Both the position numbers and the translations under genes were made by a program. A stretch of DNA of 60,913 nucleotides from a virus, in the IMG/VR virus record IMGVR_UViG_3300025706_000005; one strand, 5' to 3'. The notes below the pieces were generated by a model, which was not told where the DNA came from, made no database searches, and saw only the letters and a list, made by a program, of their open reading frames with translations. This document shows, one piece after another, positions 14,349 to 54,495 of the stretch. How positions within the stretch are numbered: position 1 is the first letter of the stretch; each line of letters begins with the position of its first letter.

Positions 14349-14360
14349 TCATTTATTTTT

Positions 14361-14637: not shown

Positions 14638-15071
14638 TTTGTTATCCTGTCGATGATGTTTAAATACCAGCTCTGCTGGTTCAAGGTCGCGGCCAGCAGT
14701 TCAAAGAAAGCCTGCTTGCTGGAGCTGATGCCAGGGCCCTTCCGTCCGTCCGGCAGAACAATGTCGTCGTATCCATTGCCGACGGCGATGCAGCCTTCCA
14801 GTTGCTCGGCCAGGTTCGCGCAATGAACCAACACGCCTTCGCGGAAAGGAACATTGTTCAAAAGAAAAGTCCAGGCCTTCAGTCTGTTGCTGAAGTGCCT
14901 GGTGCAAAGATACTGGCCGGCGGGGATGCGGCTTATCTTCTTTGCGTTGTTCTTCCACGGCAGTTCCAGCGTGCAGCAGAAGGGGATTGCACCCTTCTTC
15001 ATCACCCCGAAAGTTCCATATTTCGGGTCATCGCATATCCTGATAGTGTCAATCTCAATCAGCTTTTTCAT
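14634..15071 (-). CDS. DUF5675-like protein with a YkuD-like His/Cys motif, 145 aa (candidate cell-wall enzyme)
   Basis: ATG at 15071 in an ATGA overlap with the giant ORF stop. RIPAGQYLCTRH ... VLVHCANLAEQLEGCIAVG resembles the IPAGxY ... HxGN ... GCI pattern (from memory). Confidence 0.5.
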   Translation of the reverse strand: MKKLIEIDTIRICDDPKYGTFGVMKKGAIPFCCTLELPWKNNAKKISRIPAGQYLCTRHFSNRLKAWTFLLNNVPFREGVLVHCANLAEQLEGCIAVGNGYDDIVLPDGRKGPGISSSKQAFFELLAATLNQQSWYLNIIDRITK

Positions 15072-18000
15072 TTTACCGCCTTCCATTTTTTCACCAGCTC
15101 AACCTGCTTGTGACGGATAAGATGGTCGATATTGTCCAGGGATTTCTGGAGTTTCTTCTTCATTGCCGGGTTGTCCTTCGCCTCTTTATTCAACTCGTTC
15201 TTCATTTTACGAAGCCCGATGATGATGCCGTCCATGCTTCCGGGCACGCTGTCCTTCTGCTCTTCCATGTAAAGGTTCCAGATTGCCATCTGGCCAGGCG
15301 TCGCCCGTCCATTGGCAACCGTCCACGAAATCGTGCCTTCCTTCGACGGGCCGCCCAGGTCCTTGAATACTGTGGTTTTCTCGGTCTTTTCCAGGCCTCC
15401 GCCGATGTTCCAGTAATAGAGCTTTCCGGCCAGGGGGACGGACTGCCAAATATCCCAGTCCGCAATCTTCACGGCCTTTCCGTCTTGGACCGCGCCTACT
15501 GTCCTGGCAACGTCTTTGATTGCGCTCTCAAAAATACGGAATGGCGGAGCAACGATGTGGCTCAAGGCTTCAGCAAGTTCCAGCTTCTCGCCCTGGGGTC
15601 GGAATTGATAAATCTGATACTTGGTGAAGCCAAATAGCTTCAGCAGGTTGTCCACGGCGGTCTGTCCCAGACGCAACGGGCGGCCAGATAAGAAGTCTTT
15701 GATGGTGTCGCTGGTCATACCCAGGGCGATGGCGCCTCCGATGAAGGCCGCCAGCATACCAGCTGCGCGCTTGCGGACAGCCGGGTCCTTGTGCTTCAGC
15801 ATTTTGAAGAGCTGTTTCCGATAATTATTTAACTGCTTTATCGGATATTGCCGGAGCATATAAAGCGTCCTCAAGTTTCCGCCAGTTGAATAAAAAGGCG
15901 GAAGCTCAATCGGGTCAGCTGGGTGGAAGTCAAGTAGGACGTTGAACATGGCCAGCATGGTGTTGTCGGTGAGTTCGCCCTTCTTAAACTCATTCGCTGT
16001 TTGTTCCGCCAGGTCGGCTCCGACGTATTCCGTCAGCTCTGTCACCAGGAGCTTGCGCTGCTTCGGGCTGTTGGCCATGCTCCGATATTTGTAGAAGGCA
16101 GCATTAATCAGGTTGTTCTTCGCAAAGCGGTCGAAGGATGCCAGGCCAGACAGCTTAAAAACTTTTTCCATCGTCTTCGCCAGTTTCGTGGGCTCGGTAA
16201 ATTCGACGGCCAGGTTTTCAATTCCAAAGTCTTTCAGCACGTTGACTTTATTCTTCGACGTGATTGCCTTCAGCCAGTTCCAGGGCCCGGCAAAGCCGAC
16301 GGCAAAGGCCTGGTCCTGAAGCTGAGTGATGGCGCTGTGAATATGGCCCAGAGTTTCGATGTATTCAATGGTTCTGAAGGTGGACCAGAAATTTGTCATG
16401 GCCGTTGGAGAGAAGTAGCTGTTGAGAAGATACTTGGCGCGCGCCTCTGCGTCGCGGGTCAACTGGCCCTTCTCTATTAAGCTGTCCAGAACCTGCCCGA
16501 TGCTCTGCGGAACGTCCAGCTGCTCGTCCTTCAGGACTGCATACTGGCCAAAAAATTTCCGCATTTCAATACTCTCGGTCATTCCGTCGATGTATTTGAG
16601 AAGTGCGATGTCGCTGTGGTCGTAATAGATGTTAAGCTCCGGGCCGATAAATTCCACCATGCGCGCCTCTGTAAATCCGGGCTTCGGAATTTTCAGGCCG
16701 GCGGCATTGTATCCTCGGATTAAGGAGTTAATGAGCTTCCAGCGTTCTTCATTGGTCAGGGGTCGCTGCTTGCTTACCTGCTCCTGAATACGGCCCTGAA
16801 GCTCGTCATTCATGTCTTTGATGCGCTCGTCCAAGGCAGCTCGTTCTTTTGCGATGGATACTTGCAGTTCCTCTTCAGCCTTCTTCTGCTTCTCCTTGAT
16901 GCCGGGGTCCACGGCCTTCATCTGCTGCTGGGCCTGCGGTTCCTGCTGAAGTAGGGCCATGTATTTGGCCTGGAGTTCCGCAATTCTGGCGCCGGTCTTT
17001 TCTGTGATTTCTTTCAGGCGCTTTTCATAGTTTGCTTCCAGCTCCTTGATTTTGGCGTCGGCCTTCTCCCGCATGGCCTTTTCTTTTTCGGTGACGGCCT
17101 CCCGGATAACTGGATCGGCGTCGCCGTAGATATACTGCATGAAGCCTTCAAGGTCGCTGGTGGACCTGGGGGCATAAACATTCTGCCAGCCCATGTCAAA
17201 GCCGGCGCGCTTCGCCTCTGTGTAGATGCGGTCCAGGGCCGCGCGCTTCATGGCGTATTCGGCTTCCATGCCGTATTTCTTATTGAACCTCTCGATTTCC
17301 TTGTCCCAGCCATTCTTCTCCGCCAAGTCGTAGCTGGCCTTGTCCAGCTCATTCATGGCGCGCTTCTTTTGAAGGAACGGAATAACCATCATCCTCATTT
17401 CATTCCTGAAGCGCACTTTGTCCCGGACATATCGGCGCAAAGATACCCGTAAATCCGGGGCGATATTGAGGAGCTGGTCGCTGATGGGCACCACGGCCTT
17501 CTGCAAGAAAGTTCCTTCCTGCTTAATCTGCCGCAAGGCGCGCAATTTCTCCGGCTTCTTTTTCGCCTTCAGGCCCTTCATCTTCTCAAGGTTCTGCTTG
17601 TAGAGAAGGTCCAGGGCTTCGGGTTCGTCCTGTCCGATTGGCTGGCTGCCCATCATCCGGGCCTCGGCCTCGGAAAGCGAATATCTTACGTCGTGCTGTC
17701 CAGGAACGTCAGGCAGTTCCGCCCATAAGTCTGCCGCGTCAGCAGGCTGAAGGCTGAATTGCTCTCCGGCCTCTCGCCATTTCAGAACGTCAGATTTTTT
17801 GATGGTCTTGCCGGCGTAGAAATTGTCGATGTCGGCCATGATAACCGATGTCGGCGTTCCGTCAGGATATTCGTATTCAAAGACGCGCAACGGGCGCTCA
17901 TAATATCCGCTGGTGTTTAAGTCGCCCAGGCCTTCCCATAAGTCGATGACGATTTCTCCATTCTTCCCGCTGATGTATTGCTCCAGGGCCCTTCTCTGCT

Positions 18001-21000
18001 GCGGGTTCGGAGCCGTCACCATGTCCAGGGTTCCGCTGTTGTAGTCCATGCGGATATTCCCGGCAGCCATAAACTCTCTCATGCCGGCTGTTCCGCCAGG
18101 CATTTCTTCGTCGGCCTGCCCGATATCCCGGTGGTCCATCTGTCTCAGGCCGGCGCTGCCGCCGAATTTCTTACCAGAGAAGTCCAGGTATGAGCCTTTG
18201 GAATTGATGTAGCCGGCTTCTCTCAAGTCTGAAGTCGTGCCGAAATACCTGGTGACTTTCGCCGTTAGCCTGTCGGCGTCCGTCTTCTCGTATTTCCCGT
18301 GGCCCAGGGCGTATCTGATGGCTTCTGCGTGGTCGCCAGTCAGATCGCTCTTGAAGTTGGAAATAGCTCTCTTCGCGTCGTCCGGGCCTCTCCAGTCGTA
18401 TCCCAGGCGCTTCATGTAGGAATTGACCTTCGCCCATTGAGAGCGACGAATACTGTCAGGGGAGTAGATGGTGACGCTGCCGTCGTCGTGGAAATTAACC
18501 ATCGGCTTCATGGCCTCGCCTTCTCCGGCAACGGAGAATTGAGGCAAGGCCATGTTTTCTATTTCTATGGCGTCTGCTTCGCTCGGGGCAATCATGCCCA
18601 GGTCCCAGCCGTCTTCCGGCAGATATTCCCGGACTGGCACCCAGTCGTAGCCAAGCTGCCTGGCCGCTTCCCAGCGGTGGTGTCCGTCCACGATATAAAG
18701 GCCATCGGCGTCGCGCTCAACAATGATGGGCGGCAAGTCGATTTCTCCGGCTTTGATTATGTCCTTCATCTTCTCGACTTTGGCCCGTTCCTTCATGTCC
18801 TCGGTCGGCATGAGTTCGGAAGTCTTCGCCAGAACCATGTCCAGGAGCTTTCCGCCTTCGCTTACCACGTTCTTGTAGTCCGGGCTTGGCTTGGCGTCGC
18901 CGGTCCACGGCAGGCGGCTGTCGGGCACGCTGCCGGCTGGCTGGGTTGTGGTCTTCGGCTGGTCCGGCAGAGCCTGGACCTTCCTTGTTTCAATACTGAA
19001 CATGGGCAGGCCCAGCTCGGCAGCCTGCTTCATGGGTTCGGTAATGCGGATTGCCCAGACCTTTGTTTTCCGGCCCTGGTCGTCTTCGATTTCCCAGGTT
19101 TCAATCTGGCCGGCAGCCGGGTCCAGGGCCTTCGCTGCGCGCTGCATGGCGCGCGCGAAATTGAGACTGGATTTCCCTTCCGGGTCATAAAAGGAAGCCA
19201 TGCCCTCGCCGCCGATTTTCAGGTTCTCGGTCAGGACGTAGGCGTTCCCATTCGGATAGACGTTCTCGCGCTCGATAAGGCGCCTGGCAACGTCCTTTCC
19301 GACGTATTCAGCGATCTGCGCCTCGTCCTTCATCTTTCCGATGGTCTGGTAGGTTTCCTGGTTCTTTGGAACAAAAGCCAGCTCCTTCGTCTTTGGGTCG
19401 TAGGCAACCTTCTCGACGTAATTTGAGAGCTTGTATCTTTCGGCCTGGGTTTCTCCGGTGGTCCAGGTGACTGCCGGATATTCGTCAGTCGCGGCCTTGA
19501 TGATTGCCAGGCGCGCGGCCAGGTCGTTCCAGTTCTTTCCCCAGGGCGCCCATTCCGGCCTGCCAGAAACCTCCTGCCTATCTCTGGCAGACATTTTTCT
19601 TTCTTCCTCGTTAAATATTTCAACGGCCATCTCTCTGGCAAAGTCAGCGTCTGGAGCATCACCTGGTCCGTCGCCCTCTCTTATATCAACAAAATGCTGC
19701 CCGTCGTTGCTTTCAAAGGCCCAGGCACCATAAGGTCTGCGATCTGTTGGTGGCCTATACGCTTGCAGAGTAATATCTGGAATAGCGTAGGTTTTTTGTG
19801 CCGCGCTCTCCGGCTCAAAATATCCACCTTTCTGGACTGCTGCTTCGTGCCAATCGCTCTGGGCTTCGTCGATATGCAGGACACTTCCCAGGCCAGAGTC
19901 CGGGCTCCGGCGCGCCAGGTATTCTCCTACACGGAGCCGGAGAACCTGGTTAATGTCGGCTTCGTCGCCGTAAGCGTGGCCTACCGGGGTCCGATAGCGA
20001 AGTCCTATTTTCTCCTGCGGAATTGTCAGCAGGATTTCAGTATGGTTCTGGCCGCCTCGCAAAACGTAGTCTGATTTTCCCCACTTTGATTTTCCAGTTG
20101 CCGGTTCGATGCGATAATACTTTTCAAATTCATAGAAGTTTTGTTCGTTGGCGTATTCCTTTGCCGCGTCCATCGTGTCAAAGGCTTTGTCTTCTTCAAG
20201 ATACTGGGTCTGAAATTTTCCGTAATACGGGTCTTTGTAAATCAATATATTCGTTCCGTCAAATTTCTTGGCCTTGACGGCCTTGACCATGTTGTCGCCA
20301 CGCCTTGCGTGCGGAAAATTGATGGATAGTTCTATCTCTTTTTCGTCACCCCATTCCAGCTTTGTCGGAGCCTTTGCGCGCTGGATGACTTGGCGCTGGG
20401 CCATCGTCATTGTATTTTCCAGCGTCGTCCCGGTATAGATAACGGCGTTTTCTTCTGGTCCTGGATTGACCTCTTCAAGATGCCAGTAATTCGGACCTGA
20501 AGACCTGATGTGATACCTCAAGCCATCGTCCGCTTTTGTTTCGTAATAGGTGTCGCCGGTTGCTGTTTTGCGTTCCAGCCATACCAGCTTCTTTGCATAG
20601 GTTGGCTTCCTGGGCTCTGGTTTTGGCTGACCGCCAGGGGCAAGCGGCCCCTTGTATATCGGCTTCAGCTCGATGGCCTTCTGTTTGATGGCGCTTATTA
20701 GCTCGTCTTTGGTAATGGTCTGGCCTGGAGCCTGTTCGTCCAGCCATTTCAGGATGCCGGTTTCCTTCAGCTCGTCGGCTTTTGTGCCGCGTCCGCTGGA
20801 GGGGTCCAGATATTTCCGCCATTGTGCTGCCGGCGCAGCCTTCATCTTGGCTTCGCTGACGACTTTCTCCAGGTTGGAGTAAAGCCCTGTTTCCTGAACC
20901 TGATACGGAAGACCAGGTATCTGCGCCTGGCCAATTTCACCTGCCTGCGCCTGACCGGACAGGAAAATGTTGTTAGTCCGCTTCAGCTCTTCCACGGATC

Positions 21001-24000
21001 GACGGAGTTGCCCGACAACCGCTTCCCGGTAGTCCTTTAGGTGTTGCAGTTTCTCCAGGCGCCTGGCCTCATTCATCTTCCCGATGGTGGTCTTCTTTCC
21101 ACGGAATACTGTCGGGGTATTGTTCGGCTCATACCGGAGCTTGGCGGTTTCGCGGATTTGCTTGTCCAGGATGTTGATGGCGTCGAAAAGGTCATTGGCC
21201 GTCATGCCTTCGGTTCCGGGGACAGGGGGCGTCGTAGCAGGCGCCATGCTCATGGCCGGGCCTTCCGGCAGCTCTTCTGTTCTGGCGTCGATAACCAGGG
21301 CCGGCAGGCTCTTCTTGCCTAATACGGCCAATGCCGCAAGGCGGTGGCCGCCTTCCAGAATGTAGTAGCCTTCATTGTCCAGGACGGCAATCAAAGGCTT
21401 TATCTGTCCGCTGGCCTTTATGCGCTGCGCCAGCTCTTCGGACCATTCAATATCGTCCTTCGTGACATAAAGGTCCCTGGGCTTGGTCACGTTGAATTGG
21501 TCTAATCCTATTTCCCGGATGCCCGGAAGCTCCTCGTATTCGCCTTCGTTGAAGGTGGCGCTGATGCTGCTGGTGTTCGGTATGTCGTCCAGGACCTCCA
21601 GACCAGATACCACGGCGCCGGCTCTGGGCGGCTCTTCAAAAAGGCCCAGGCGTTTCTTCGCGGCCTCTACTGTCTCGCCTTCCTTCATCATCCAATGCGG
21701 ACTGTCTTTCCCGCCTTTGAACAGGACGTATGAAAAGAGCCGGTCGGCCTCGTTCTCGCCGTAGTTCTCGATTATCTTTGCTCCGTCGTAGCCCAGAGCC
21801 TCCAGGACCTGCGGGTCCATCGTCGCCCAGTCCACGTTCCGCTTGCCGTCCTCGCCTTTTGGCGCCATAAAATCGAAGTGCTGGAAGGTGAAGGTTTCTT
21901 CATCGCCGTCCACGTTCTTGTATTTCTTCCCGACGAAAGCCTGGAGCTTCTTGATGTCTTTCTGGCTCGTCGTGTCAAAGATGTTCCTGGTATCCACCAG
22001 GAATGAGTGAACGGCGCCGGCTCCGCCTGGGGCGTGCCCGGCAAAAGTCCTGGCGAATTGCGGTTCCGGGGTGAAGAATATTCCGCCGTAATCCTGGCCT
22101 TTTCCCAGGTTCTCTTCCGTGACCTGGCCGGCAACCCGTCCTCCCAGGACCAGCTTTTCTCCGATAATTTTCTCGGAGCCTCCATGATAGAGCCGGAGAT
22201 ACCTTTGCTGGGCCGGCTTCGGCGCTGCCGGCGCTATGCTCATTTGCGGAGCCTCGGCTTTTCTGGCCTTTGCGATGTCGCGCGCAATGGCTATTTCTGC
22301 TCCGGCTTCGTCGATGTAAACGTGGCCGGCAGGCAGGCCCTTGCTGTTCATATAGGTAATGCGCCAGCGGACGCCGCCGTTGTTGGCCAGCTCTGTGGAG
22401 TTGGCCCTGGAAAGGAAGCTGCCGTCCTGGAAGACATAAGAAGACCGCTTCGCCAGGACCTCCTTCGCCGTAGGCAACTGCATCTGGATTGTGGCTCTGA
22501 TGCGCTCCGGGGCGTCCGGGTCAAAGTTCTCCAGGTCCGCCGGCAATTCAGGGATTTGCTGTTTCCCGATTTCTTCAAGAAACTTATCCTGCTCGGCTTT
22601 GCTAAAGAGCTTCATCTGGGCTGCTGCCGCGCGCTCGGCTTCGTTGTCGTTGAAAAGGGGAAGGTCCTCGGCGCCACGGGCCTGGGCCGCTTCTTTCTCG
22701 GCCTTCTCCCGCTTATATTGCTCGATGGCCTGTCGCTCCGGGTTCACGGCCTGGCCAAAAAGGTCGGTCGCGGCAAGGGCGGTGCGGCGGTCCCAGGGCA
22801 ATTTTTTTTCTGGCTCTGCTTTTTCGGAAGTTGCAACACCTGTTATTTCAAAAGCCTTTTCTTGGGTTATTGGCCTGGCCATTCTGAAAGACTTTGAAAC
22901 ATGGAAGTATTTTCCACCAGGAGTTCTTATTACGCCTTCCTTCGCGTTGTCATTAATCCGCATGGCTGCGCTTTTAAATTCTTCGCCAGAAGTAGGTTTT
23001 TCAATGACTACTTCTTTTCCGTTGTAAATTGCGACGTGATGTTTTTTAATCGCTTTCGTGGTTGGTGTTTTTTGCTTCAGAAACTCCGGCGCCTCTTTCT
23101 CTTCGGACCAGGGCTTCTTGTTCGCAATCTCGTAGGTAAGCCCGGCCATAATCGGCTTCCCGGTCACGGCGTCTTTGGCTCCGCTTGGTGCGGGAACGGC
23201 ATGAGATACCCAGGCCAGGATGGTAGGCTTCTTCAGGCTCTTCACGGCCAGGAGTCGTCGGTGGCCATCTACCAGGCTCAACCTTCCGTCTTCCATTTCC
23301 GTGATTTCAACCGGGGGATATTGCTTCCCCTCCTTCATCCATTGAGCATACCTTTCGTCGTCGCCCCTCTTCACGGGGTCCAGGCGTCCTTCCCGGTCCA
23401 GCTCTGGCGCCAGAACGTCGGACACCTTGACCTCCATTAAGTGATCGATGGGATGGCCGTAAAGACTATTCAGCTTATCGTCGATGCGCCAGCTGCCTAC
23501 TGGCGGAACATCGATTTCAACCGGCGTCGTGCGGCTACTGGCGCCTTCGGCGTATGGAGCATAGAGCTTCCGCCGGTATTCGCTTGCCAGAATGTAGGCG
23601 CCTTTGTCAGCAGGCGGCTTCATTTCTGGGGCCAGCTCTTCAGCTGCCTTTGGAGCTTCAGGTATGGGTGCCGCGAACAAATCCATCTGGCCGGGTTTGG
23701 CTGACAACATGGTTTCTTTTCCTGGCCGATACTTGCCCTGGGCAACAATGCTTTCGTCGTTGAAGACAGCCAGGGCGTCGCCAGGATGGTCGTTCACGAT
23801 GTAGCTGTCGAATCCCTGCTGCTTTATCATGTCGATTACAGACGGCTTCTCCAGTATTTCCCAGTCGCCAGCCTTCGCTTCTTCGGTCCACCAGCTTTCC
23901 CAGTCAGCCTCTTTCTTCAGGGCTGCCTGGAGGCGCTTCTGATGCGTCGGGTTGTGATAGTCGAAGACGTTTTTGACGTTGACCTTTGCGGTTGTTATCC

Positions 24001-27000
24001 TGGGCCCGTATTGCTCGGCCAGGGCCGGCTCTCTGTGGAAATAGAGGGCTCCGCCTGCTCTGTCGCCCATGCCGGTCTGGAGCTGCGGATACCATTGCTT
24101 CGCCCCGTGGTAGAGAGGAACATTGTTCCAGGTGTCAGCCAGTCTTTTCGGGGCCACGCTGAAGGCTCGGCCCGTGGGCCTGGTTCCGGCCATTTCCGCG
24201 CGCGCCATCGCCGCCTTCTGCATTTCAAAGGTGCCTTCCCAGCTGGGTCCTCGCTGCCGCAAGACGGCAACAATGTCTTTGATGGCTTCGTCGATAAAGC
24301 GTTTGCGGTCCAGAGGCTTTCCGTTCCGCCCGATAAGGTTTTTGATTTTTGCGAAAAGCTGGTTCAAAAGCTGTCTGAAATAATGCAGCAGTCTTCCGGG
24401 GATGCCGGAAACAATCTGCTCCTTCCAGACGCGCTCCAGCTGGCGCGCCGCCCATTCGCTTCGGAGATATTTGTAGGCGGCTGCCTCACCGAAACCTTCT
24501 TTTCTCTGCTTCCAGGTCTGGTAGTAGTCCGGGAAGGCTCCGTATCGCGCGCGAAATTCTTTCCATTCCTTCTCTTCTTCGTAGCCGGCGCCATGTTTCT
24601 CCGCAATCCGTCGCCATTCCTGGTTGTAGTTGGCTTTGGCCCATTCCCATTCAGAACGGAAAAGGTCGTCCACCTGCTTCCTGATGCCAGGGTTTAAGGC
24701 CAGAACGATGTCGATGCCCAGGTGTCCTACTAGCTCATGCGCCAGAACATACTCCAGGCGCTCCGGGCCCAGGTTCGCGTTTATCCAGAGAAGTGAGTGC
24801 CCGACGCCTCCATGTCCACGGATAACAAAGCCCTCAATCATTCCTTCGCGCGCAACCGGAAGCTCCGCCGTCAGCGGTGCGTCTTCAGACACCACCAACT
24901 TTACCTTGTCCATTAGCTTTGCCATCTTCATCTTGGCGATGACTTTGGCATTGATTTCATCCAGGACCATCTTGTTGGTCAGGAGCTGCTTCGGAGTGGG
25001 ACGGCCCAGGGAAAACGGAAGTTCGCCGGTGTCGGCGTTGGGGTCGTAATCCAGGTTGCTGTCGTCGTATTCAGAACGCGGCGGCTCCGGTATTTGTCCG
25101 TTCTCGCCTGTCTCTGCTTCGTTCTGTATTTGGGCGTCCTTTTCCTTCTGCTCTGCCGGCGTCTGGGTGTCGATTTCTTCAGGAGTATCCAGGTCCACGT
25201 TCTTGCCAGGCGTCAGGTCTTCGGATACGGCCTCCTGCATGGTGTCTTCGTTGGCGTTCCTGGCTTCCTGGGGCTCGTTGGCAGCCAGGTTGCCCTGTTC
25301 CTCCTGAACAGCAGTCATGTAGTTGATATATTCCTGCTCGTCCTTCAGAGATTTCCTGGCCTGCTCCTCAACTGATTTCCAGAGCTGTGGCTTCGTCCGG
25401 TGCTTTCCGTCTTGATACCAATTGATTGCCGTGAGTATGGCCTCGCCGTGGCTCTGGGGCTCCTGGTATTCGGTTTCCTGCTCTTCCATATCAAAAGCCC
25501 GTTCCGTGGTTCCGGTAATGGCTTCTGATAAAACGCCAGGAAGGTCTGTGTCGATGGCTGGCTTGCGGTAGCCGTTAGGGCCAAGTATTCGCCCGTCTTT
25601 CTCCAGGATATCATTGTCGGTCATTCTGAAGAATTGTTTGATACGGGCCTTGCCCTTTGTCGCCCATTCCTCTCCGAAATAGGCTTTCATGCTCATGTAA
25701 GGTTCAAGGGTGGCCGGGTCTGTTGACCGCATTAAATCCAGCACGCTGTCGTTGAGATTAAACTCGGCCAGCTCTTTCTCGTAAATCCTCGCTCCGGCTT
25801 CAAAGATGTCTTGCCCGGTGTGCATATCAGCGCCGTAGGAAATGATGTATCGGCCAGGCCTCATGCCCATTTTCTGCATGCCGTAATTCTCAAGCTCCCG
25901 GCGCGCCTTGCGGACGGCCTGGTCATCAATTCTGAAGGTAATGGCCCTGGCGGCTTTAATGGCCTCATTCAGCTTGTTGGGGTCGCCCTGGTAGGTCTTC
26001 CAGTCCAGGACCAGCTTCTTCATGGCCGCATATTCCGGGACCTGGGCCGCGCGTATCCTGATGAATTTTGGATTGCCGGCCAGCTCGTATCCGCCTTCGT
26101 TCAGCTGTTCCCGGCTGATTAAGTGGGTCACAACCTCCGGCGGCTGATAGTCCGGCTTCTTAATGGGGTCATATCCGCGCTCACTCAACGGCAGATCGCG
26201 GCGCCCTGTCTTTGCCCAGGTTAAAAAACTGGCCATGTCCGGGAAGACGTAGTGCCCTTTGGCCAGCCTGATGTCGCGCTTCCCGCCTTTTTTGATTACG
26301 GCTGCGGTGTTCCTGGTGTATGCTTCCAGGGCCTCTTCCGGGCTCTTCCAGCCAATCATCGCAACGTGCTTGTCCAATCCTCCGTCTTCCATGAGACTGC
26401 GCTGGTTCACCACGACAACCGGGGCGTTCTTGGCCGGCGCCTGGTCATTGGTGTAGGCCCAGAGCTGCGGGTGGTCCGGCGCTTCCGTGTCAGGCAGTTT
26501 GCCGTAGGGGTTCTCGGTGACAAGCTGAACAGTCTGCTTTTTGCCTGATTTTTGGATGGTTCTAAAATCTCCGGGATTGCTGGTGACTTCGATTTTTACG
26601 CCGGCGATGGTCTTTGTCCTGGCGGCAATGGCTCTTTGCTCGGCCTCTTTGGCCTTTCTGTTCGCTTCCGCAACAATGGCTTCGGATTTCTTCTTGCCGG
26701 CTTCCGTGGTCGCGGTCATGTCCGGGTATTCCCGGAGAACGGACAGCGGAACATCCTTGCCAGCGTCCAGGGCCGCCTGAACGATGGCCCGGTGAGTAAA
26801 GCGGTCGTCCCTGGCTTTCTTGGCCTGGCTGATGGCCTTTGCATCCTTCGGGACAGAGGCTTCGTATTCAGCCTTCCAGGTGTCGGCCAGCTCCTTGCCG
26901 CGCGCCTCCTGGCCAAAAGGATTGAAGAGCATGGGATTGCCACGATACTGGCGCTCTACTGCGACAAATTGCTTGAACGGCTGGGCCCAGGGCACAAGGT

Positions 27001-30000
27001 TCTTCTCTCTCTTTTCCTTGAGCTGCTGATTGATGAAGGTGGTGGCTGCCTGCTTCGGGTTCTGGGCGTCTATGCGCCTGCCATCGGCCTCGGCCAGCCT
27101 GAAAAGGGCGTGCTTCGCCTCCGCCCCTTTTACTGGGTGGATGGTGGAGTCCTTGATGTCGCTGATTTCTTCGGCTGAAATACCGCTGTCCGCCAGCCTG
27201 GCTTCCAGATTGGCGGACAGCTCTTCAACCTCTTCCGGCAATAATTTGACTTTTGCTTCGGCTTCGGTGCCTTCGGGCCAGGTCAGTTGACCGGCTTCTT
27301 GTTTTCCAGGTAAAGGCGCTCTACCTCCGCCAGTTCCGCCAGCACCTTCGGGTTCTTCTCGCCTTCCCGTAATTTCGCCAACTTCTCTGGTATCGGCAGC
27401 CCTTCTACCCCCAGCCTGCGTGCGAGATTTTCTCGGCTCATAAGAGTTTTTCTCCTCGCTATAAACGTAATTTAATTTGTTTGCAATTTCAAGCAATTTC
27501 TTTTCTTTCATCGCGTCGGCCAGTTTGTCGGCCTCTTTTATCTTTGCTTGAACGTCGTCGCCCGGCTTTACCTCGGACACCCCATAATCAATTCCCAGGG
27601 CTCCGGTCGGCATACCCGCGTGTTTCGGATGCTTGGTTTCAGTAAGGCCTTTCTCGACTTTCTTGGCCTCGATGTTTGCTGCCGCCGCCTGCATCACGGC
27701 TTCAATTTCTTCGGCGGTCTTATAGGGAAATACGGCCTTAAACTCTTCGCCTTTGCTGCGCTCGATGACGCCTTTGGCGTCTTTGACTGCTTTGGAAAGG
27801 TTCTCTCCCCATATTTCGGCCATCAGCTCATTGGCGCCGTCGTGGCCGTAAACCTTATTTACTCCGCCCAGGTTCTGCCCGTCCGCCATGACGACGGCAA
27901 AAGGGATTTGCCGTTGCTGCATTTCCTTGATGGCCCGGCTTACGGCTCCGGCGTTGTAGGTGTCCGGGATGATGGTATCGTGGAAAGCGTCAGCGGCTTC
28001 GGTGAGAAGACCTTTTATTTCCTCGTCATCGGTCCTTTTGGCCGCGTTCCTATATCGGATAGTCGGGTCCAGAATATTGTCGATTACTTTGTCGTCGGCC
28101 CGGAGTTCCGGGACCGGAGCTGCCGCAATCACGGCTTCCCGCCGGTCCTTCTCTGGATCGGAGTATTCGCCCGTTTCTGTCGGAGTCTTGGCTTCAGGGG
28201 TCGGGGCGGTAAGCATTTCTCTGGTGGGCGGAGCCTCCAGCTTTTTGGCTGGTGGTTGTTCCGTCGGCTCCGCCCCGGCCTTTGGAGCCGGCGCCGTGGG
28301 TTCGGTTCGCTTCTGTTCAAAAGGACCTTCAGGAGCTTCCTGGTCAGCCTTCTTCTTGCCAGGCTGTCCCTTGTTCTCCATGAAATTGAGCATGGTTTCA
28401 AGGTTGATGCGTTTTACGTCCAGGTGGTCCAGCTCTTTCGTTGTGGCTGCGCGCTCCTCCGCGCTCATGGCCTGCCAGTCCTTGCCTTTCATTACGTCGC
28501 TGATGTCGGCCTGGTTCCGTTCCATTTCCAGCCGGATGGCTTCGGCGCCGCGTGCATAGAAGTCGTCCATCTTCCCGGCCTTCGCGGCCTGGTCTGCCGC
28601 CCGGTATTTGATGGCCGCTTCAGGGGTGGTGAAGTTGCCTCTTACTCCCCAGGCATGGAAAAGCATGATGCTGGCAGCTGCCGTCGCCAGCTCTTCAGGC
28701 GGCGGTGTTTCTCCGCCTTTCATCTTGGCCGCCAGGTATTCTGTGCCTGCGGACACGGCGCCTACTGTCAGGGTCTGGCCGGTGGTCTTGGCGATCTGTT
28801 CTGCCCGGCTGATACTCTGCATGACGGCCTTCTGGCCGATACCGGGCAAGGCGCCTACTGCACCCAGGGAGCCGAATACAACCGCTGATTTGCCTATGTC
28901 GGCAACCGAAAACTCCTGCTCCGGGTCCAGGACCTGCCCTGAAGCTCCGAATATGGCGCCTGTGCCTGTGCCTTCGATGATGTGCTGCGCTGCGGCGCCG
29001 GCCTTTGTGCCTGTCCTGGTGGCTCCGGCCAGGGCTTCCGGGACAAGGGCGGTAGCGCCCAGGGCCCTGCCTTCTGCCGCCAGCTTGGTCAGTCCTGCTT
29101 TGGATAGGGCTCCTGCACCCTTGAGCGCCGGCAATGACGCTGCAAAGTCGATAAGGCCCATTGTGAAGTTCTTGGCCGCAATCATACCGGAGTTCATTCC
29201 GTAGAATGTTTCCGGGTCGTCCTTAATCTCGTCCGGGGTGGTCAAGGCAACCGCGTCAACCGGGGAAATCGTAGTTCCCAGGCGCTTGGTGGCGCCCATT
29301 GTAGCTGCTGCCAGGCGTCCTTTCACGCTGGCCAGCAGCTCCGGCGTCATTCCGCCAGTCAGATACTTGCTCTGGGTCAGGCCGTCGGCCCATACCATTG
29401 CTTCACGGGCCAGTTCCTTAACCTTCTGCTGATATGCCGGGGTGTTCTGGTCCAGGCCCTTCAGTTGGTTCGCGGCCAGGTCCTGAAATCGCTGCTCCGT
29501 CGCGGCCTGCCGATATTCCGATACCTCTTTTAAAAACTCCTGGTCGCCGGAGCCCAGTTCTTCTGGCTTGGCTTTGGTCTGCGGCCTGGCTTCAAACTCT
29601 TCTTTCGGCTTTGCCGGTTGCTGCGGCTTCTGCTGGCGCTGCTTCTTTATGTCCATGCGGACCTGGGCCTGGGTCTTTGCAGCTCCAGTGATGGCGTCAG
29701 GTTCGGGTTCGGCAGGCGGTGGGACAATGGGTTGTGCTGTTATGTCCGGCGCGTTTTTAATTAGTATCGGGCGGACAGTGGGTTCGGTCTGGAATGTGGA
29801 CTGGGCCTCGTCAAGTCGGAGTCCGGCGTCAGGTAGCGGACCTATGGCCGGTGGCTCCGGCGGCAACATACTGGCAGGAGTATTTGCGCGTATCCTATCC
29901 AGCATATCCCGGTAAGGAACAACTGTTGTTTCTTCTGTTTCGGTAATGCTGGGTAGGTATTGTTCCGACTGCTTTGAAACACTGATACCGGAAATCGCTT

Positions 30001-30097
30001 CAAGGGCGCTCTTAAACTGTTCCGGTGTAGGGTTGTCGCTGGGAAATTCTACCTCATAGACCTGCCCGGTCCTCGGATGCGTTATTTCGTAGAGCAT
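15068..30097 (-). CDS. Giant multidomain (polyvalent-type) virion/ejection protein, 5,009 aa
   Basis: Uninterrupted 15,030-nt ORF in the internal-virion-protein position of the late operon. It carries multiple recognisable enzymatic motifs, listed as separate features. Confidence 0.9.
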   Translation of the reverse strand: MLYEITHPRTGQVYEVEFPSDNPTPEQFKSALEAISGISVSKQSEQYLPSITETEETTVVPYRDMLDRIRANTPASMLPPEPPAIGPLPDAGLRLDEAQSTFQTEPTVRPILIKNAPDITAQPIVPPPAEPEPDAITGAAKTQAQVRMDIKKQRQQKPQQPAKPKEEFEARPQTKAKPEELGSGDQEFLKEVSEYRQAATEQRFQDLAANQLKGLDQNTPAYQQKVKELAREAMVWADGLTQSKYLTGGMTPELLASVKGRLAAATMGATKRLGTTISPVDAVALTTPDEIKDDPETFYGMNSGMIAAKNFTMGLIDFAASLPALKGAGALSKAGLTKLAAEGRALGATALVPEALAGATRTGTKAGAAAQHIIEGTGTGAIFGASGQVLDPEQEFSVADIGKSAVVFGSLGAVGALPGIGQKAVMQSISRAEQIAKTTGQTLTVGAVSAGTEYLAAKMKGGETPPPEELATAAASIMLFHAWGVRGNFTTPEAAIKYRAADQAAKAGKMDDFYARGAEAIRLEMERNQADISDVMKGKDWQAMSAEERAATTKELDHLDVKRINLETMLNFMENKGQPGKKKADQEAPEGPFEQKRTEPTAPAPKAGAEPTEQPPAKKLEAPPTREMLTAPTPEAKTPTETGEYSDPEKDRREAVIAAAPVPELRADDKVIDNILDPTIRYRNAAKRTDDEEIKGLLTEAADAFHDTIIPDTYNAGAVSRAIKEMQQRQIPFAVVMADGQNLGGVNKVYGHDGANELMAEIWGENLSKAVKDAKGVIERSKGEEFKAVFPYKTAEEIEAVMQAAAANIEAKKVEKGLTETKHPKHAGMPTGALGIDYGVSEVKPGDDVQAKIKEADKLADAMKEKKLLEIANKLNYVYSEEKNSYEPRKSRTQAGGRRAADTREVGEITGRREEPEGAGGTGGGRAPLPGKQEAGQLTWPEGTEAEAKVKLLPEEVEELSANLEARLADSGISAEEISDIKDSTIHPVKGAEAKHALFRLAEADGRRIDAQNPKQAATTFINQQLKEKREKNLVPWAQPFKQFVAVERQYRGNPMLFNPFGQEARGKELADTWKAEYEASVPKDAKAISQAKKARDDRFTHRAIVQAALDAGKDVPLSVLREYPDMTATTEAGKKKSEAIVAEANRKAKEAEQRAIAARTKTIAGVKIEVTSNPGDFRTIQKSGKKQTVQLVTENPYGKLPDTEAPDHPQLWAYTNDQAPAKNAPVVVVNQRSLMEDGGLDKHVAMIGWKSPEEALEAYTRNTAAVIKKGGKRDIRLAKGHYVFPDMASFLTWAKTGRRDLPLSERGYDPIKKPDYQPPEVVTHLISREQLNEGGYELAGNPKFIRIRAAQVPEYAAMKKLVLDWKTYQGDPNKLNEAIKAARAITFRIDDQAVRKARRELENYGMQKMGMRPGRYIISYGADMHTGQDIFEAGARIYEKELAEFNLNDSVLDLMRSTDPATLEPYMSMKAYFGEEWATKGKARIKQFFRMTDNDILEKDGRILGPNGYRKPAIDTDLPGVLSEAITGTTERAFDMEEQETEYQEPQSHGEAILTAINWYQDGKHRTKPQLWKSVEEQARKSLKDEQEYINYMTAVQEEQGNLAANEPQEARNANEDTMQEAVSEDLTPGKNVDLDTPEEIDTQTPAEQKEKDAQIQNEAETGENGQIPEPPRSEYDDSNLDYDPNADTGELPFSLGRPTPKQLLTNKMVLDEINAKVIAKMKMAKLMDKVKLVVSEDAPLTAELPVAREGMIEGFVIRGHGGVGHSLLWINANLGPERLEYVLAHELVGHLGIDIVLALNPGIRKQVDDLFRSEWEWAKANYNQEWRRIAEKHGAGYEEEKEWKEFRARYGAFPDYYQTWKQRKEGFGEAAAYKYLRSEWAARQLERVWKEQIVSGIPGRLLHYFRQLLNQLFAKIKNLIGRNGKPLDRKRFIDEAIKDIVAVLRQRGPSWEGTFEMQKAAMARAEMAGTRPTGRAFSVAPKRLADTWNNVPLYHGAKQWYPQLQTGMGDRAGGALYFHREPALAEQYGPRITTAKVNVKNVFDYHNPTHQKRLQAALKKEADWESWWTEEAKAGDWEILEKPSVIDMIKQQGFDSYIVNDHPGDALAVFNDESIVAQGKYRPGKETMLSAKPGQMDLFAAPIPEAPKAAEELAPEMKPPADKGAYILASEYRRKLYAPYAEGASSRTTPVEIDVPPVGSWRIDDKLNSLYGHPIDHLMEVKVSDVLAPELDREGRLDPVKRGDDERYAQWMKEGKQYPPVEITEMEDGRLSLVDGHRRLLAVKSLKKPTILAWVSHAVPAPSGAKDAVTGKPIMAGLTYEIANKKPWSEEKEAPEFLKQKTPTTKAIKKHHVAIYNGKEVVIEKPTSGEEFKSAAMRINDNAKEGVIRTPGGKYFHVSKSFRMARPITQEKAFEITGVATSEKAEPEKKLPWDRRTALAATDLFGQAVNPERQAIEQYKREKAEKEAAQARGAEDLPLFNDNEAERAAAAQMKLFSKAEQDKFLEEIGKQQIPELPADLENFDPDAPERIRATIQMQLPTAKEVLAKRSSYVFQDGSFLSRANSTELANNGGVRWRITYMNSKGLPAGHVYIDEAGAEIAIARDIAKARKAEAPQMSIAPAAPKPAQQRYLRLYHGGSEKIIGEKLVLGGRVAGQVTEENLGKGQDYGGIFFTPEPQFARTFAGHAPGGAGAVHSFLVDTRNIFDTTSQKDIKKLQAFVGKKYKNVDGDEETFTFQHFDFMAPKGEDGKRNVDWATMDPQVLEALGYDGAKIIENYGENEADRLFSYVLFKGGKDSPHWMMKEGETVEAAKKRLGLFEEPPRAGAVVSGLEVLDDIPNTSSISATFNEGEYEELPGIREIGLDQFNVTKPRDLYVTKDDIEWSEELAQRIKASGQIKPLIAVLDNEGYYILEGGHRLAALAVLGKKSLPALVIDARTEELPEGPAMSMAPATTPPVPGTEGMTANDLFDAINILDKQIRETAKLRYEPNNTPTVFRGKKTTIGKMNEARRLEKLQHLKDYREAVVGQLRRSVEELKRTNNIFLSGQAQAGEIGQAQIPGLPYQVQETGLYSNLEKVVSEAKMKAAPAAQWRKYLDPSSGRGTKADELKETGILKWLDEQAPGQTITKDELISAIKQKAIELKPIYKGPLAPGGQPKPEPRKPTYAKKLVWLERKTATGDTYYETKADDGLRYHIRSSGPNYWHLEEVNPGPEENAVIYTGTTLENTMTMAQRQVIQRAKAPTKLEWGDEKEIELSINFPHARRGDNMVKAVKAKKFDGTNILIYKDPYYGKFQTQYLEEDKAFDTMDAAKEYANEQNFYEFEKYYRIEPATGKSKWGKSDYVLRGGQNHTEILLTIPQEKIGLRYRTPVGHAYGDEADINQVLRLRVGEYLARRSPDSGLGSVLHIDEAQSDWHEAAVQKGGYFEPESAAQKTYAIPDITLQAYRPPTDRRPYGAWAFESNDGQHFVDIREGDGPGDAPDADFAREMAVEIFNEEERKMSARDRQEVSGRPEWAPWGKNWNDLAARLAIIKAATDEYPAVTWTTGETQAERYKLSNYVEKVAYDPKTKELAFVPKNQETYQTIGKMKDEAQIAEYVGKDVARRLIERENVYPNGNAYVLTENLKIGGEGMASFYDPEGKSSLNFARAMQRAAKALDPAAGQIETWEIEDDQGRKTKVWAIRITEPMKQAAELGLPMFSIETRKVQALPDQPKTTTQPAGSVPDSRLPWTGDAKPSPDYKNVVSEGGKLLDMVLAKTSELMPTEDMKERAKVEKMKDIIKAGEIDLPPIIVERDADGLYIVDGHHRWEAARQLGYDWVPVREYLPEDGWDLGMIAPSEADAIEIENMALPQFSVAGEGEAMKPMVNFHDDGSVTIYSPDSIRRSQWAKVNSYMKRLGYDWRGPDDAKRAISNFKSDLTGDHAEAIRYALGHGKYEKTDADRLTAKVTRYFGTTSDLREAGYINSKGSYLDFSGKKFGGSAGLRQMDHRDIGQADEEMPGGTAGMREFMAAGNIRMDYNSGTLDMVTAPNPQQRRALEQYISGKNGEIVIDLWEGLGDLNTSGYYERPLRVFEYEYPDGTPTSVIMADIDNFYAGKTIKKSDVLKWREAGEQFSLQPADAADLWAELPDVPGQHDVRYSLSEAEARMMGSQPIGQDEPEALDLLYKQNLEKMKGLKAKKKPEKLRALRQIKQEGTFLQKAVVPISDQLLNIAPDLRVSLRRYVRDKVRFRNEMRMMVIPFLQKKRAMNELDKASYDLAEKNGWDKEIERFNKKYGMEAEYAMKRAALDRIYTEAKRAGFDMGWQNVYAPRSTSDLEGFMQYIYGDADPVIREAVTEKEKAMREKADAKIKELEANYEKRLKEITEKTGARIAELQAKYMALLQQEPQAQQQMKAVDPGIKEKQKKAEEELQVSIAKERAALDERIKDMNDELQGRIQEQVSKQRPLTNEERWKLINSLIRGYNAAGLKIPKPGFTEARMVEFIGPELNIYYDHSDIALLKYIDGMTESIEMRKFFGQYAVLKDEQLDVPQSIGQVLDSLIEKGQLTRDAEARAKYLLNSYFSPTAMTNFWSTFRTIEYIETLGHIHSAITQLQDQAFAVGFAGPWNWLKAITSKNKVNVLKDFGIENLAVEFTEPTKLAKTMEKVFKLSGLASFDRFAKNNLINAAFYKYRSMANSPKQRKLLVTELTEYVGADLAEQTANEFKKGELTDNTMLAMFNVLLDFHPADPIELPPFYSTGGNLRTLYMLRQYPIKQLNNYRKQLFKMLKHKDPAVRKRAAGMLAAFIGGAIALGMTSDTIKDFLSGRPLRLGQTAVDNLLKLFGFTKYQIYQFRPQGEKLELAEALSHIVAPPFRIFESAIKDVARTVGAVQDGKAVKIADWDIWQSVPLAGKLYYWNIGGGLEKTEKTTVFKDLGGPSKEGTISWTVANGRATPGQMAIWNLYMEEQKDSVPGSMDGIIIGLRKMKNELNKEAKDNPAMKKKLQKSLDNIDHLIRHKQVELVKKWKAVK
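15698..17110 (-). other. Giant ORF aa ~4330-4800: long coiled coil followed by a hydrophobic C-terminal segment
   Basis: KEKAMREKADAKIKELEANYEKRLKEITEKTGARIAELQAKY ... then RKRAAGMLAAFIGGAIALGMT. Confidence 0.5.
18608..18865 (-). other. Giant ORF aa ~3745-3830: ParB/Srx-like domain 3
   Basis: LPPIIVERDADGLYIVDGHHRWEAARQLGYDWVPVREY. The DGHHR codons were verified at 18674-18688. Confidence 0.6.
21278..21535 (-). other. Giant ORF aa ~2855-2940: ParB/Srx-like domain 2
   Basis: IKPLIAVLDNEGYYILEGGHRLAALAVLGKKSLPALVID. Confidence 0.5.
21698..22210 (-). other. Giant ORF aa ~2630-2800: ADP-ribosyltransferase-like domain 2
   Basis: LRLYHGGSEKI ... DYGGIFFTPEPQFARTFAG ... VHSFLVDTRNIFD ... LGYDGAKIIENYGENEADRLFSYVLF. 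Confidence 0.55.
23198..23515 (-). other. Giant ORF aa ~2195-2300: ParB/Srx-like domain 1
   Basis: YPPVEITEMEDGRLSLVDGHRRLLAVKSLKKPTILAWV. The DGHRR codons were verified near 23255-23270. Confidence 0.55.
23738..24145 (-). other. Giant ORF aa ~1985-2120: ADP-ribosyltransferase-like domain 1 (ART-PolyVal-like, H-Y-[EDQ] type)
   Basis: VPLYHGAKQW ... GGALYFHREPALAEQYG ... VKNVFDY ... GFDSYIVNDHPGDALAVF. Confidence 0.5.
24668..24865 (-). other. Giant ORF aa ~1745-1810: HExxxH motif region (possible metallopeptidase)
   Basis: GHGGVGHSLLWINANLGPERLEYVLAHELVGHLGIDIV. The HELVGH codons were verified at 24722-24739. This is not the canonical HExxH spacing. Confidence 0.3.
27488..28000 (-). other. 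Giant ORF aa ~700-870: GGDEF-like nucleotide cyclase domain (KGEEF variant, no RxxD I-site)
   Basis: FAVVMADGQNLGGVNKVYGHDGANELM ... VIERSKGEEFKAVF ... ALGIDYGVS ... EADKLADAMKEKK is collinear with the DxDxFKxxNDxxGHxxGDxxL ... RxGGEEF ... SxGxx ... ADxAxYxAK layout. The KGEEF codons were verified at 27740-27754. Confidence 0.6.
28628..29200 (-). other. Giant ORF aa ~300-490: Gly/Ala-rich hydrophobic segments
   Basis: GMIAAKNFTMGLIDFAASLPALKGAGAL, GAIFGASG, SAVVFGSLGAVGALPGIG, ATAAASIMLFHAWGV. Confidence 0.5.
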
Positions 30098-47397: not shown

Positions 47398-48219
47398 TTA
47401 TTTCACCAGGGCTTCTTCACCTTCCGGCTCTTCCACCGGGGGCTTCTCTGCGCCCAGGCCGGCCAGCTTCATCAGCTCGGCCTTTATTTGCTCAATTTCA
47501 GGTTTGATGACCTGCTTGTATTCGGCCAGGCCCTTGTAGCCCTGGGGGCTCTTCTTCTTCATGAAGTCGATTAAGGCCGCATACTTGGTCATGACCTGGT
47601 TTTCAGCCATTTCCTCGGCTTCGTCAATTGTATTGGGAATGGCGCCCGTGGGCAGCTGGGGCTCTTTGGCAGGCGCTCCATCAGAGATCGCTGAAGGCTC
47701 CTGCGGGGCCGCCGGTTTGACCTGGGCCTGGATAGGCGGTTTCTCTGCGCCTTTGGTCTTCAGGCTGTCCAGGTGGCGCTGGAAGGCGCTGTTGTCGCGC
47801 GCCGGCTTGATGCCCAGGTAGTCCGCGCGCTCTTTCACCCTGGCGATGGCCTGGGCCTGCGGAATGGTGCCCTCGGGCGTCAGGATTTCCATGAGAACGA
47901 ATTGGTTGGAATAGAAGTGCGTGGCAATCACGTCGAAATTGCGGCGGGTGCCGGGGACATAGGCCGTTGCTACGCCTTCTTCGTTGGGCTCAAACATGGT
48001 GTAGCTGCAAGGGTGCATATTCAGGCGGTAGTTGACCTCCATCGAATTGGGGGATTTGTAGGTTTCTACCCTGATGTCGTCGAACCCGTGAATGGGAAGC
48101 GGATACTCCGTAATGACGCGGAGCCGGAGAACAAAGATGTCGTATCCGCGTTCCAGAAGCATTTTGACCTGCTTCTCGCGGGTAGTTTCTTTGTTTCCGA
48201 TGTTGATTGTAGGCTTCAT
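47398..48219 (-). CDS. Hypothetical head-associated protein, 273 aa
   Basis: Immediately downstream of the major capsid gene. Two-domain layout with a Pro/Ala-rich linker. Confidence 0.55.
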   Translation of the reverse strand: MKPTINIGNKETTREKQVKMLLERGYDIFVLRLRVITEYPLPIHGFDDIRVETYKSPNSMEVNYRLNMHPCSYTMFEPNEEGVATAYVPGTRRNFDVIATHFYSNQFVLMEILTPEGTIPQAQAIARVKERADYLGIKPARDNSAFQRHLDSLKTKGAEKPPIQAQVKPAAPQEPSAISDGAPAKEPQLPTGAIPNTIDEAEEMAENQVMTKYAALIDFMKKKSPQGYKGLAEYKQVIKPEIEQIKAELMKLAGLGAEKPPVEEPEGEEALVK

Positions 48220-48298
48220 TTTTTGCCTTCCTTTTGGTTTATGGTCGTTAAAAACTGGGCCTGGATTTCTCCAGGCCCAGTCGCTTTTCCTTCACCGA

Positions 48299-49741: not shown

Positions 49742-49771
49742 GAGAAAACCTCGTTTGGTTGAGTTTTTTGG

Positions 49772-51151: not shown

Positions 51152-51173
51152 TACTATCCTCCCTTTGCGGCTC

Positions 51174-51855: not shown

Positions 51856-51866
51856 ATTCGCTCCTT

Positions 51867-54053: not shown

Positions 54054-54054
54054 G

Positions 54055-54484: not shown

Positions 54485-54495
54485 TTTTACTGTTT

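Follow-up and report, generated by a model that had tools for sequence, protein, structure and literature searches.

A divergent GGDEF-fold domain in a giant polyvalent protein of an uncultured phage

Results

The DNA analyzed here is IMG/VR virus record IMGVR_UViG_3300025706_000005 (60,913 nucleotides, referred to below as the window), and it encodes a giant protein that carries a GGDEF-like domain among several other modules. The open reading frame (ORF) of this polyvalent protein, recognized from the ORF list, its translation and its Pfam domains, lies at 15068..30097 on the minus strand, as do the other genes and domains of the window given with coordinates below. The ORF comprises 5009 codons (a protein of 5009 amino acids and about 559 kDa), which amounts to 24.7% of the genome. 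A Shine-Dalgarno-like AAGGG is located 7 nt upstream of the ATG, the ORF starts 10 nt past the end of the upstream gene, and its 3' end is overlapped by the downstream gene. The giant gene is the last, translationally tight member of a structural block. Bases 1-127 are repeated at the other end of the window (60787-60913). This overlap indicates that the sequence closes into a circle of about 60.8 kb, and the window represents the full genome of the phage. It matches nearly all of a contig of 60,927 bp (k141_477500) from the ENA metagenome assembly ERZ27257456, and five near-identical contigs carry the same head protein.

The GGDEF-like domain occupies residues 706-895 of the giant protein (27413..27982), on the evidence of Pfam, an AlphaFold2 (AF2) model and Foldseek. 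A preliminary description of this DNA, made by eye, had placed a region collinear with diguanylate cyclase domains at 27488-28000 (residues 700-870); the location was right, but the domain is slightly wider than that span. The strings quoted for the collinearity are all present in the minus-strand ORF (FAVVMADGQ from residue 733, GHDGAN at 751-756, KGEEF at 782-786 and EADKLADAMK from 855), and the register of the alignment made by eye is the same as that of the phmmer alignment to DgcB (6tts). The domain matched PF00990 with an E value of 6.1e-13 and 49.3 bits against a gathering cut-off of 23.8, over positions 19-157 of the 161 in the profile, which is far more than chance would produce, and no Pfam family other than GGDEF matched the region at E values up to 1. 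The NCBIfam model TIGR00254 gave an E value of 1.7e-8 and 34.3 bits, just under its cut-off of 37.4, and other NCBIfam diguanylate cyclase models matched the domain too. In searches of PDB sequences, the single domain sequence was aligned with DgcB by phmmer, and a family profile built from 36 relatives matched 48 sequences, nearly all of which were diguanylate cyclases (3ign, 2e-13; DgcB, 6e-13; DosC, 1e-12; PleD, 5e-8).

In addition to the profile searches, the fold of the domain was predicted. An AF2 model of residues 696-895, based on the 36-relative alignment, had a mean predicted local distance difference test score (pLDDT) of 95.4 and a predicted template modeling score (pTM) of 0.89. 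Its elements follow the order α0, β1, α1/α2, β2-β3 hairpin, α3, β4, α4 and C-terminal β-hairpin, and the model shows a β-α-α-β-β-α-β palm-type core. The best 50 Foldseek matches in the PDB were all GGDEF domains (SiaD, WspR, DgcB, PleD, DosC and GcbC), with E values down to 4e-10. The template modeling (TM) scores reached 0.66 when normalized by the query (WspR, 3bre) and 0.76 when normalized by the target (GcbC, 5euh), and the root mean square deviation was about 3 Å for WspR and GcbC. The profile and the predicted cyclase core thus bear out the assignment made in the preliminary description, and it is virtually certain that residues 706-895 form a GGDEF-fold domain homologous to diguanylate cyclases.

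The domain is flanked on both sides by hydrophobic-poor linkers, which give it a bead-on-string look. The upstream linker (residues 570-655, 28133..28390) is rich in Pro, Glu, Lys and Ala. At the other end, the domain closes with a C-terminal β-hairpin, Y-V-Y-S-E-E-K-N-S-Y-E-P-R (residues 877-889), followed by the second linker (residues 879-951, 27245..27463). The hairpin motif [NG]-Y-x-Y-[NS]-x-E-x-x-x-Y-E-[PHY]-R (residues 877-890, 27428-27469) also ends the GGDEF-like domain in many other giant proteins, with a disordered linker directly after it. This terminal hairpin could be a docking or cleavage site for a processing peptidase.

Active-site residues were assigned by alignment, with PleD numbering for reference. 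In the alignment with DgcB, M-A-D739-G-Q-N742-L-G744-G-V-N747 (27857..27889) is the counterpart of D-I-D-x-F-K-x-I-N. D739 is the metal ligand that aligns with PleD D327, and N747 is the canonical base-reading, sugar-face Asn (PleD N335). H752 of the next motif, G-H752-D-G-A-N756 (27830..27847), is the counterpart of PleD H340. The signature hairpin R780-S-K782-G783-E784-E785-F786 (27740..27760) reads KGEEF for GGEEF, and its R780, K782, G783, E784 and E785 correspond to PleD R366, G368, G369, E370 and E371, respectively. As had been described from the letters, D739, E784 and E785 are kept, Lys stands at the first signature Gly, and the RxxD inhibitory site (I-site) is absent, the aligned residues 773-776 being D-A-K-G. 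Toward the C terminus, A856-D857...K864 (27506..27532) is the counterpart of R-A-D-x-A-L-Y-x-A-K, in which the equivalent of PleD K442 is present as K864. The alignment of relatives also revealed a clade-specific insert, H823-P-K825-H-A-G (27614..27631), in the loop before β4, where canonical GGDEF domains have a gap. This insert was modeled at a pLDDT of about 98.

Next, we examined the relatives of the domain. An exhaustive HMMER search of 1.84 billion representatives gave 205 matches with E < 1e-3, of which 48 were below 1e-10. About half of the best 150 representatives were proteins of 1000-4700 amino acids, in which the domain was mostly located 400-1100 residues from the N terminus. Canonical cyclases with D-I-D-x-F-K...G-H-x-x-G-D...R-Y-G-G-E-E-F were confined to the weak end of the list. 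N742 and N747 define a clade of 94 sequences including the query, to which the following counts refer (by this definition, none has Lys at position 744). The sequences of the clade share 25-40% identity, and the motif D-x-x-N-L-G-G-x-N replaces D-I-D-x-F-K-x-x-N-D, so that the lysine equivalent to PleD K332 is lost; D739 is found in 89 of the 94 sequences and Gly at position 744 in 73. The motif G-H752-x-x-A takes the place of the canonical G-H-x-x-G, with His in 68 sequences, and position 756 is Asn in 51 and Asp in 40. In the signature hairpin, R780 is kept in 86, G783 in 90 and E785 in 92, and position 782 is Gly in 66, Lys in 9 and Gln in 9 (Lys or Gln in 18/94). Position 784 is Asp in 88 and Asp or Glu in 89; Glu occurs in the window protein only. 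The insert is shared by most members (H823 in 82/94 and K825 in 86/94), as are D857 (80/94) and K864 (77/94), and position 868 is variable. This conservation of metal ligands and substrate-contacting residues at 25-40% identity fits an enzyme and not a scaffold. The changes that look damaging are clade-wide and are accompanied by the new conserved H-P-K, which points to a remodeled site and not a decayed one.

The domain was carried as a tandem pair in 29 of 149 representatives, and such pairs fit a reaction needing two half-sites. Tandem relatives include P0011, P0038, P0060, P0063 and P0094, and in some of them one copy is degenerate, with Ser for the metal Asp or G-P-D for G-D-E. Such pairs recall the C1/C2 pseudo-dimer of class III cyclases. 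In addition to the giants, stand-alone clade members of 200-280 amino acids with the same motifs were found in ordinary bacterial chromosomal neighborhoods, so that the clade extends beyond mobile elements. Two examples, of 238 and 277 amino acids (L004 9721-10437 and L005 10001-10834), carry the motifs N-L-G-G-L-N, F-R-H-G-G-D-E and H-P-K-H. One is next to genes for an ECF sigma factor and an NrsF-like anti-sigma factor, and the other has Ser/Thr kinase genes on both sides. The closest collinear giant, P0036, has an eroded GGDEF domain (motifs NLTETN and GADEF, Pfam E value of 2e-5).

The next recognizable domain after the GGDEF-like domain is InPase-like (residues 1141-1299, 26201..26677; PF18823, E value of 7.7e-11). 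In all seven giants that have an InPase domain, it directly adjoins the GGDEF-like domain, following it in five and preceding it in two. The seven giants span both clade subgroups, and Pfam confirms the InPase domain in P0036 and P0001. At the family level, this adjacency fits a pyrophosphate-releasing nucleotidyl transfer. In an alignment with six relatives, the InPase-like domain of the window protein has D-H-P-Q-L-W where the relatives have D-K-D-x-x-D, and the signature D-x-D-x-x-D is thus lost. It also has Thr for the Glu of I-E-N, and D-K-H-V where the relatives have D-E-H-K. To judge from these residues, the domain is probably inactive in the window protein. In P0036, the InPase-like domain likewise lacks both the signature and the Glu of I-E-N and is probably inactive as well, and the other five giants keep an intact InPase beside the GGDEF-like domain.

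The giant gene follows the packaging and head genes, which lie upstream of it on the same strand (47398..57262). These encode the small terminase (56636-57262), the large terminase (54496-56667), a P22-like portal (51867-54053) and the major head protein (48299-49741), and several large unassigned proteins are also encoded upstream on this strand. The giant protein has the marks of a polyvalent protein: it combines several unrelated enzymatic domains, including PF18823 and PF18760, and is encoded with the virion and packaging genes of a portal-terminase phage. A related giant was found on the IMG/VR contig L002, which has a T7-like gene order (major capsid protein, tail tubular proteins A and B, internal virion protein, lysozyme-type internal protein, giant and tail fiber). 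The L002 giant (7082-14659 on the plus strand of that contig, 2525 amino acids) carries LPD22 and two GGDEF-like domains in tandem, with HEAGH after them, and it occupies the slot of T7 gp16, an ejection protein. By its gene position and by this homologue in the gp16 slot, the giant protein of the window is likely a virion protein.

The remaining modules of the giant protein lie between the InPase-like domain and the C terminus, with the exception of a long, Gly/Ala-rich, mildly hydrophobic stretch in the N-terminal part (residues ~300-500, ~28600-29200). This stretch, which was assigned to no family, also occurs in P0001, with 28% identity over residues 158-581, and may insert into or interact with membranes. 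An HEXXXH motif, A-H-E-L-V-G-H (residues 1786-1792, 24722..24742), was read from the sequence and makes a candidate zincin-like processing peptidase; the region has no Pfam match to an MPTase family, and the HEXXXH variant is mentioned in PMC5512222. Zincin-like MPTase domains are frequent in polyvalent proteins but are no necessary part of them. An ART-PolyVal ADP-ribosyltransferase (ART) domain follows at residues 1994-2116 (23750..24118; PF18760, E value of 1e-8). A second, weak ART-like region without a Pfam call begins at 22175-22195 (residues ~2635-2790, R-L-Y-H-G-G-S...G-G-I-F-F-T-P-E-P) and resembles the first with a pairwise E value of 2e-4. Three ParB-like domains were found at residues ~2230-2295 (23213..23410, VDGHRRL; PHROG 1033), ~2869-2940 (21278..21493, EGGHRLA; Pfam ParB_N with an E value of 3.4e-6 and PHROG 3264) and ~3761-3822 (18632..18817, VDGHHRW; Pfam ParB_N and PHROG 1033 with an E value of 2.7e-14). 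They are separate ParB/Srx-like modules in one polypeptide.

The C terminus is formed by an all-helical module of about 860 amino acids with one hydrophobic helix (4778-4796) at 15071..17647. This module is common to four other GGDEF-bearing giants (P0036, P0020, P0145 and P0069), with BLASTP identities of 29-47%, and is a candidate virion-anchoring or ejection module. It had no match among PDB sequences, and its AF2 model (pLDDT of 59.8) had no fold match, so that a virion role was unsupported by this route.

Discussion

We read the domain as a genuine GGDEF domain with the palm fold of nucleotidyl cyclases, which belongs to a divergent clade and forms one module of an injected polyvalent protein. 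The reading as a whole carries even weight in our judgment, and its activity, product, dimerization, packaging and effect are what we infer. In this scheme, the giant protein would be made late, enclosed in the capsid among the internal or ejection proteins and carried into the cell together with the DNA. Delivery of the carrier with the DNA as a polyvalent protein is quite probable. Once inside, the GGDEF module would work while still tethered by its flexible linkers, or once the HEXXXH peptidase of the same protein has cut it free. It would pair with a second copy, each binding one purine nucleoside triphosphate (NTP) and Mg2+ through D739, E784 and E785, and the two NTPs would be joined to give a cyclic dinucleotide and pyrophosphate. 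From the residues that are kept, we consider it reasonably probable that the domain is an active NTP-condensing enzyme. The product would be cyclic di-GMP (c-di-GMP) or, since the guanine-specific Asp is replaced by Asn756, might be a dinucleotide that is mixed or contains adenine. That it is c-di-GMP specifically seems doubtful; with Asn756 at this position, a different purine dinucleotide has about the same probability. Because the domain has neither an RxxD I-site nor a sensor domain, the enzyme would be unregulated, free of product inhibition and constitutive once dimerized. Host second-messenger physiology (motility, pili and surface) would be rewired at once, to the exclusion of competitors, or nucleotide-based immunity would be disturbed. 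Phage peptides are known to raise host c-di-GMP through YfiN (PMC8085984).

Several observations weigh against this proposal, and most of them concern the active site. The residues K332, K442 and R446 of PleD are phosphate and transition-state residues, and changes at K332, R446 and D344 are each expected to hurt a canonical cyclase, as judged from mutagenesis of PleD and WspR. In the window protein, only the K442 counterpart of the K332/K442/R446 set is kept. Two departures that the preliminary description had not recorded are Gly744, which stands at the place of K332, the lysine of D-x-D-x-F-K, and Asn756, which stands at the place of the guanine-specific Asp (PleD D344; Ser in Hypr GGDEFs) and leaves the Asn and Asp guanine-recognition pair incomplete. 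The counterpart of PleD R446 is missing as well, since position 868 is Leu. The accepted signature is [G/A/S]G[D/E]E[F/Y] (PMC6456294), from which the window protein departs at the first position with Lys782. It is proposed that K825, together with H823, probably takes over phosphate binding from the lost D-x-D-x-F-K lysine; this is drawn from fold topology, because β4 of the palm fold is antiparallel to β1 and the loop into β4 therefore adjoins the β1 end with D739. The window protein also has a single GGDEF copy and no recognizable dimerization element, and pairing in trans would therefore be required. Given the lost InPase signature, removal of pyrophosphate is probably uncoupled in this protein. 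The packaging is deduced from gene position in a metagenome phage that is known here from its genes. Finally, DNA and protein searches of GenBank phages gave no match for the GGDEF domain, the portal or the C-terminal module, and the sole GenBank phage match was to the large terminase, at 35% identity. With the portal, GGDEF domain and C-terminal module lacking such matches, and no head-to-tail match to any GenBank phage, the phage lineage is new by sequence comparison.

Many of the same substitutions would be expected if the domain were a catalytically dead GGDEF with a purely structural role or one in binding nucleotides or proteins. Lys782 breaks the signature, the K332 equivalent is Gly, the R446 equivalent is lost and D344 is replaced by Asn; moreover, the adjoining InPase-like domain is degenerate, so that enzymatic decay occurs in the same polypeptide, and the GGDEF domain of P0036 is more eroded. 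However, the metal ligands, R780, N747, H752 and K864 are present and kept across a deep clade, the damaging-looking changes are clade-wide and come with the new conserved H-P-K, and the I-site receptor mode of degenerate GGDEFs is unavailable without RxxD. We regard a dead domain as rather unlikely. Alternatively, the enzyme could be active and make another product, such as 3',3'-cyclic GMP-AMP (3',3'-cGAMP), c-di-AMP or a linear or oligomeric nucleotide, which would serve as a decoy or jammer of CBASS, type III CRISPR or Panoptes-like immunity. At the Watson-Crick-face position, Asp allows the use of GTP only and Ser allows promiscuous use (PMC6456294), and the window protein has Asn756 at this position, which sets GTP specificity. 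The clade is split about evenly there (51 Asn versus 40 Asp), the phosphate loop is remodeled, and immune systems built on GGDEF-family cyclases as well as decoy nucleotides exist (PMC12657218). In contrast, the Ser/Thr of Hypr enzymes is missing, the sugar-face N747 is canonical, the nearest structures and profiles are all diguanylate cyclases, and no Pfam mCpol or Cas10 match was obtained at E values up to 1. Such a product is an unlikely choice overall.

The remaining alternative concerns delivery and not chemistry. The giant protein might not be packaged but be a late cytoplasmic effector, or act in the producing cell only, in which case the GGDEF domain would act late and not at entry. 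A protein of 559 kDa is heavy cargo for a capsid with about 61 kb of DNA, and the C-terminal module has no recognizable similarity to known internal virion proteins. Nevertheless, the gene is last and translationally tight in the structural block, the L002 homologue takes the place of T7 gp16, with internal virion proteins on one side and the tail fiber on the other, and combinations of ART-PolyVal, InPase and ParB are typical of polyvalent proteins predicted to be packaged, with packaged giants known (PMC5512222). Experimentally shown examples are the N4 virion RNA polymerase and P1 DarB and DdrB (reviewed in PMC5512222). We assign an unpackaged protein a low probability.

Several other assignments were tried and rejected. 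Cas10, mCpol and class III cyclases were set aside because the domain matched GGDEF profiles and structures only, with no Cas10 among the best 50 fold matches and no PADLOC hit. A Hypr GGDEF was rejected because there is no Ser/Thr at the key position (Asn756, with G-E-E-F), and a c-di-GMP receptor acting through the I-site because residues 773-776 lack RxxD. A second, cryptic GGDEF copy that could serve as an internal pair was sought in the giant protein with the family profile and filters off, and none was found.

A bolder extension of the injected-cyclase proposal is that the N-L-G-G/H-P-K clade is a separate enzyme class in the GGDEF fold. Its lysine would have moved from the P-loop to the pre-β4 insert, and its base reader would toggle between Asn and Asp. 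Phages would inject this enzyme, whose ancestral partner would be a pyrophosphatase pulling the reaction forward. The cell would be swamped at entry by a non-canonical cyclic dinucleotide, which would jam nucleotide-based immunity, act as a decoy for it or shut down receptors that rival phages use. We consider this scenario improbable.

Compared with cyclases of the PleD, WspR, DgcB, DosC and SiaD type, the window domain is alike in fold (TM scores of 0.6-0.76) and in its metal ligands, R-x-x-G-[DE]-E-F hairpin, sugar-face Asn, His and K442 equivalent. It differs in having no sensor or receiver domain, coiled-coil stalk or RxxD I-site, and in Lys782, the lost K332 and R446 equivalents, the change of D344 to Asn and the extra H-P-K insert. 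In addition, the G-R-N turn of canonical cyclases is replaced by a long C-terminal helix and a β-hairpin. The Hypr GGDEFs GacA and Bd0367, which make 3',3'-cGAMP, have Ser/Thr and GGDEF, whereas the window domain has Asn and K-G-E-E-F. The best viral fold matches of the model were phage GGDEF proteins (Bacillus phage SP-15, phage G gp350 and Bordetella phage CN1; E values of 5e-10 to 2e-5). These are separate proteins of 152-460 amino acids with 16-20% identity to the domain, whereas the window domain is a module of a giant protein in a structural block. T7 gp16, N4 virion RNA polymerase and P1 DarB are large proteins whose genes close the structural block and which are delivered together with the phage DNA; the likeness of the window protein to them is one of gene position, and no sequence or fold similarity to gp16-type or packaged giants was found.

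The occurrence of GGDEF in such proteins has been predicted before. Iyer et al. 2017 (J Bacteriol, PMC5512222) counted GGDEF as one of the less frequent domains of polyvalent proteins, for which they predicted packaging and injection, and proposed that it interferes with host nucleotide signaling or acts against rivals. Those proteins, like the window protein, are giants that join unrelated enzymes, are encoded near virion genes and are predicted to be injected. Their example from an Acetonema longum prophage (WP_004096050.1) combines GGDEF with SWI2/SNF2, DNA methylase, MPTase and ART domains; the partners in the window protein differ. The preliminary description had suggested that a GGDEF domain in a packaged phage protein might be undescribed. 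That suggestion falls with the 2017 report, and the rest of its interpretation, namely the fold, the metal ligands and the context of a structural or late gene block, stands. Because GGDEF in injected polyvalent proteins was already predicted in 2017, the window protein is a new example in an unrelated, uncultured phage. What is new here is the definition of the clade, the moved-lysine hypothesis, the Asn/Asp switch, the tandem pairs, the GGDEF-InPase adjacency and the homologue in the gp16 slot. The GGDEF-InPase adjacency is absent from the text of Iyer et al. 2017 (PMC5512222). In the literature searched, no paper linked GGDEF to internal virion proteins and no experimental study of such a domain was found.

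If the domain is active, the phage would set the host cyclic-dinucleotide level within seconds of entry, before phage gene expression. This would bear on superinfection exclusion, on the control of biofilm and motility and on the arms race over nucleotide-based immunity. To our knowledge, no injected phage protein has been shown experimentally to make a bacterial second messenger. The clade, with its confidently predicted compact fold, is a concrete target for cloning and assay, and the H-P-K insert and the Asn/Asp switch offer testable predictions on how a GGDEF active site can be rebuilt.

Additional features of the genome

Neither a word-indexed protein search with one sequence nor an IMG/VR scan with one protein gave a match. 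A scan with a four-sequence alignment found one IMG/VR locus, one JGI locus and three distant loci in metagenome-assembled genomes. Two neighboring proteins of 1180 amino acids had no match in a phmmer search of PDB sequences. Downstream of the giant gene, a DUF5675 gene is followed by recombination and replication genes. A 290-amino-acid protein encoded between the large structural genes and the giant gene (31463-32335) showed weak matches to holin families (PHROGs 4237 and 20, E values of about 6e-5). Just upstream of the terminase genes are those for a DUF5131 protein (59780-60415, E value of 3e-36) and an MmcB-like nuclease (58117-58725). The genome also contains a single tRNA-Glu with anticodon TTC at 1669-1745.

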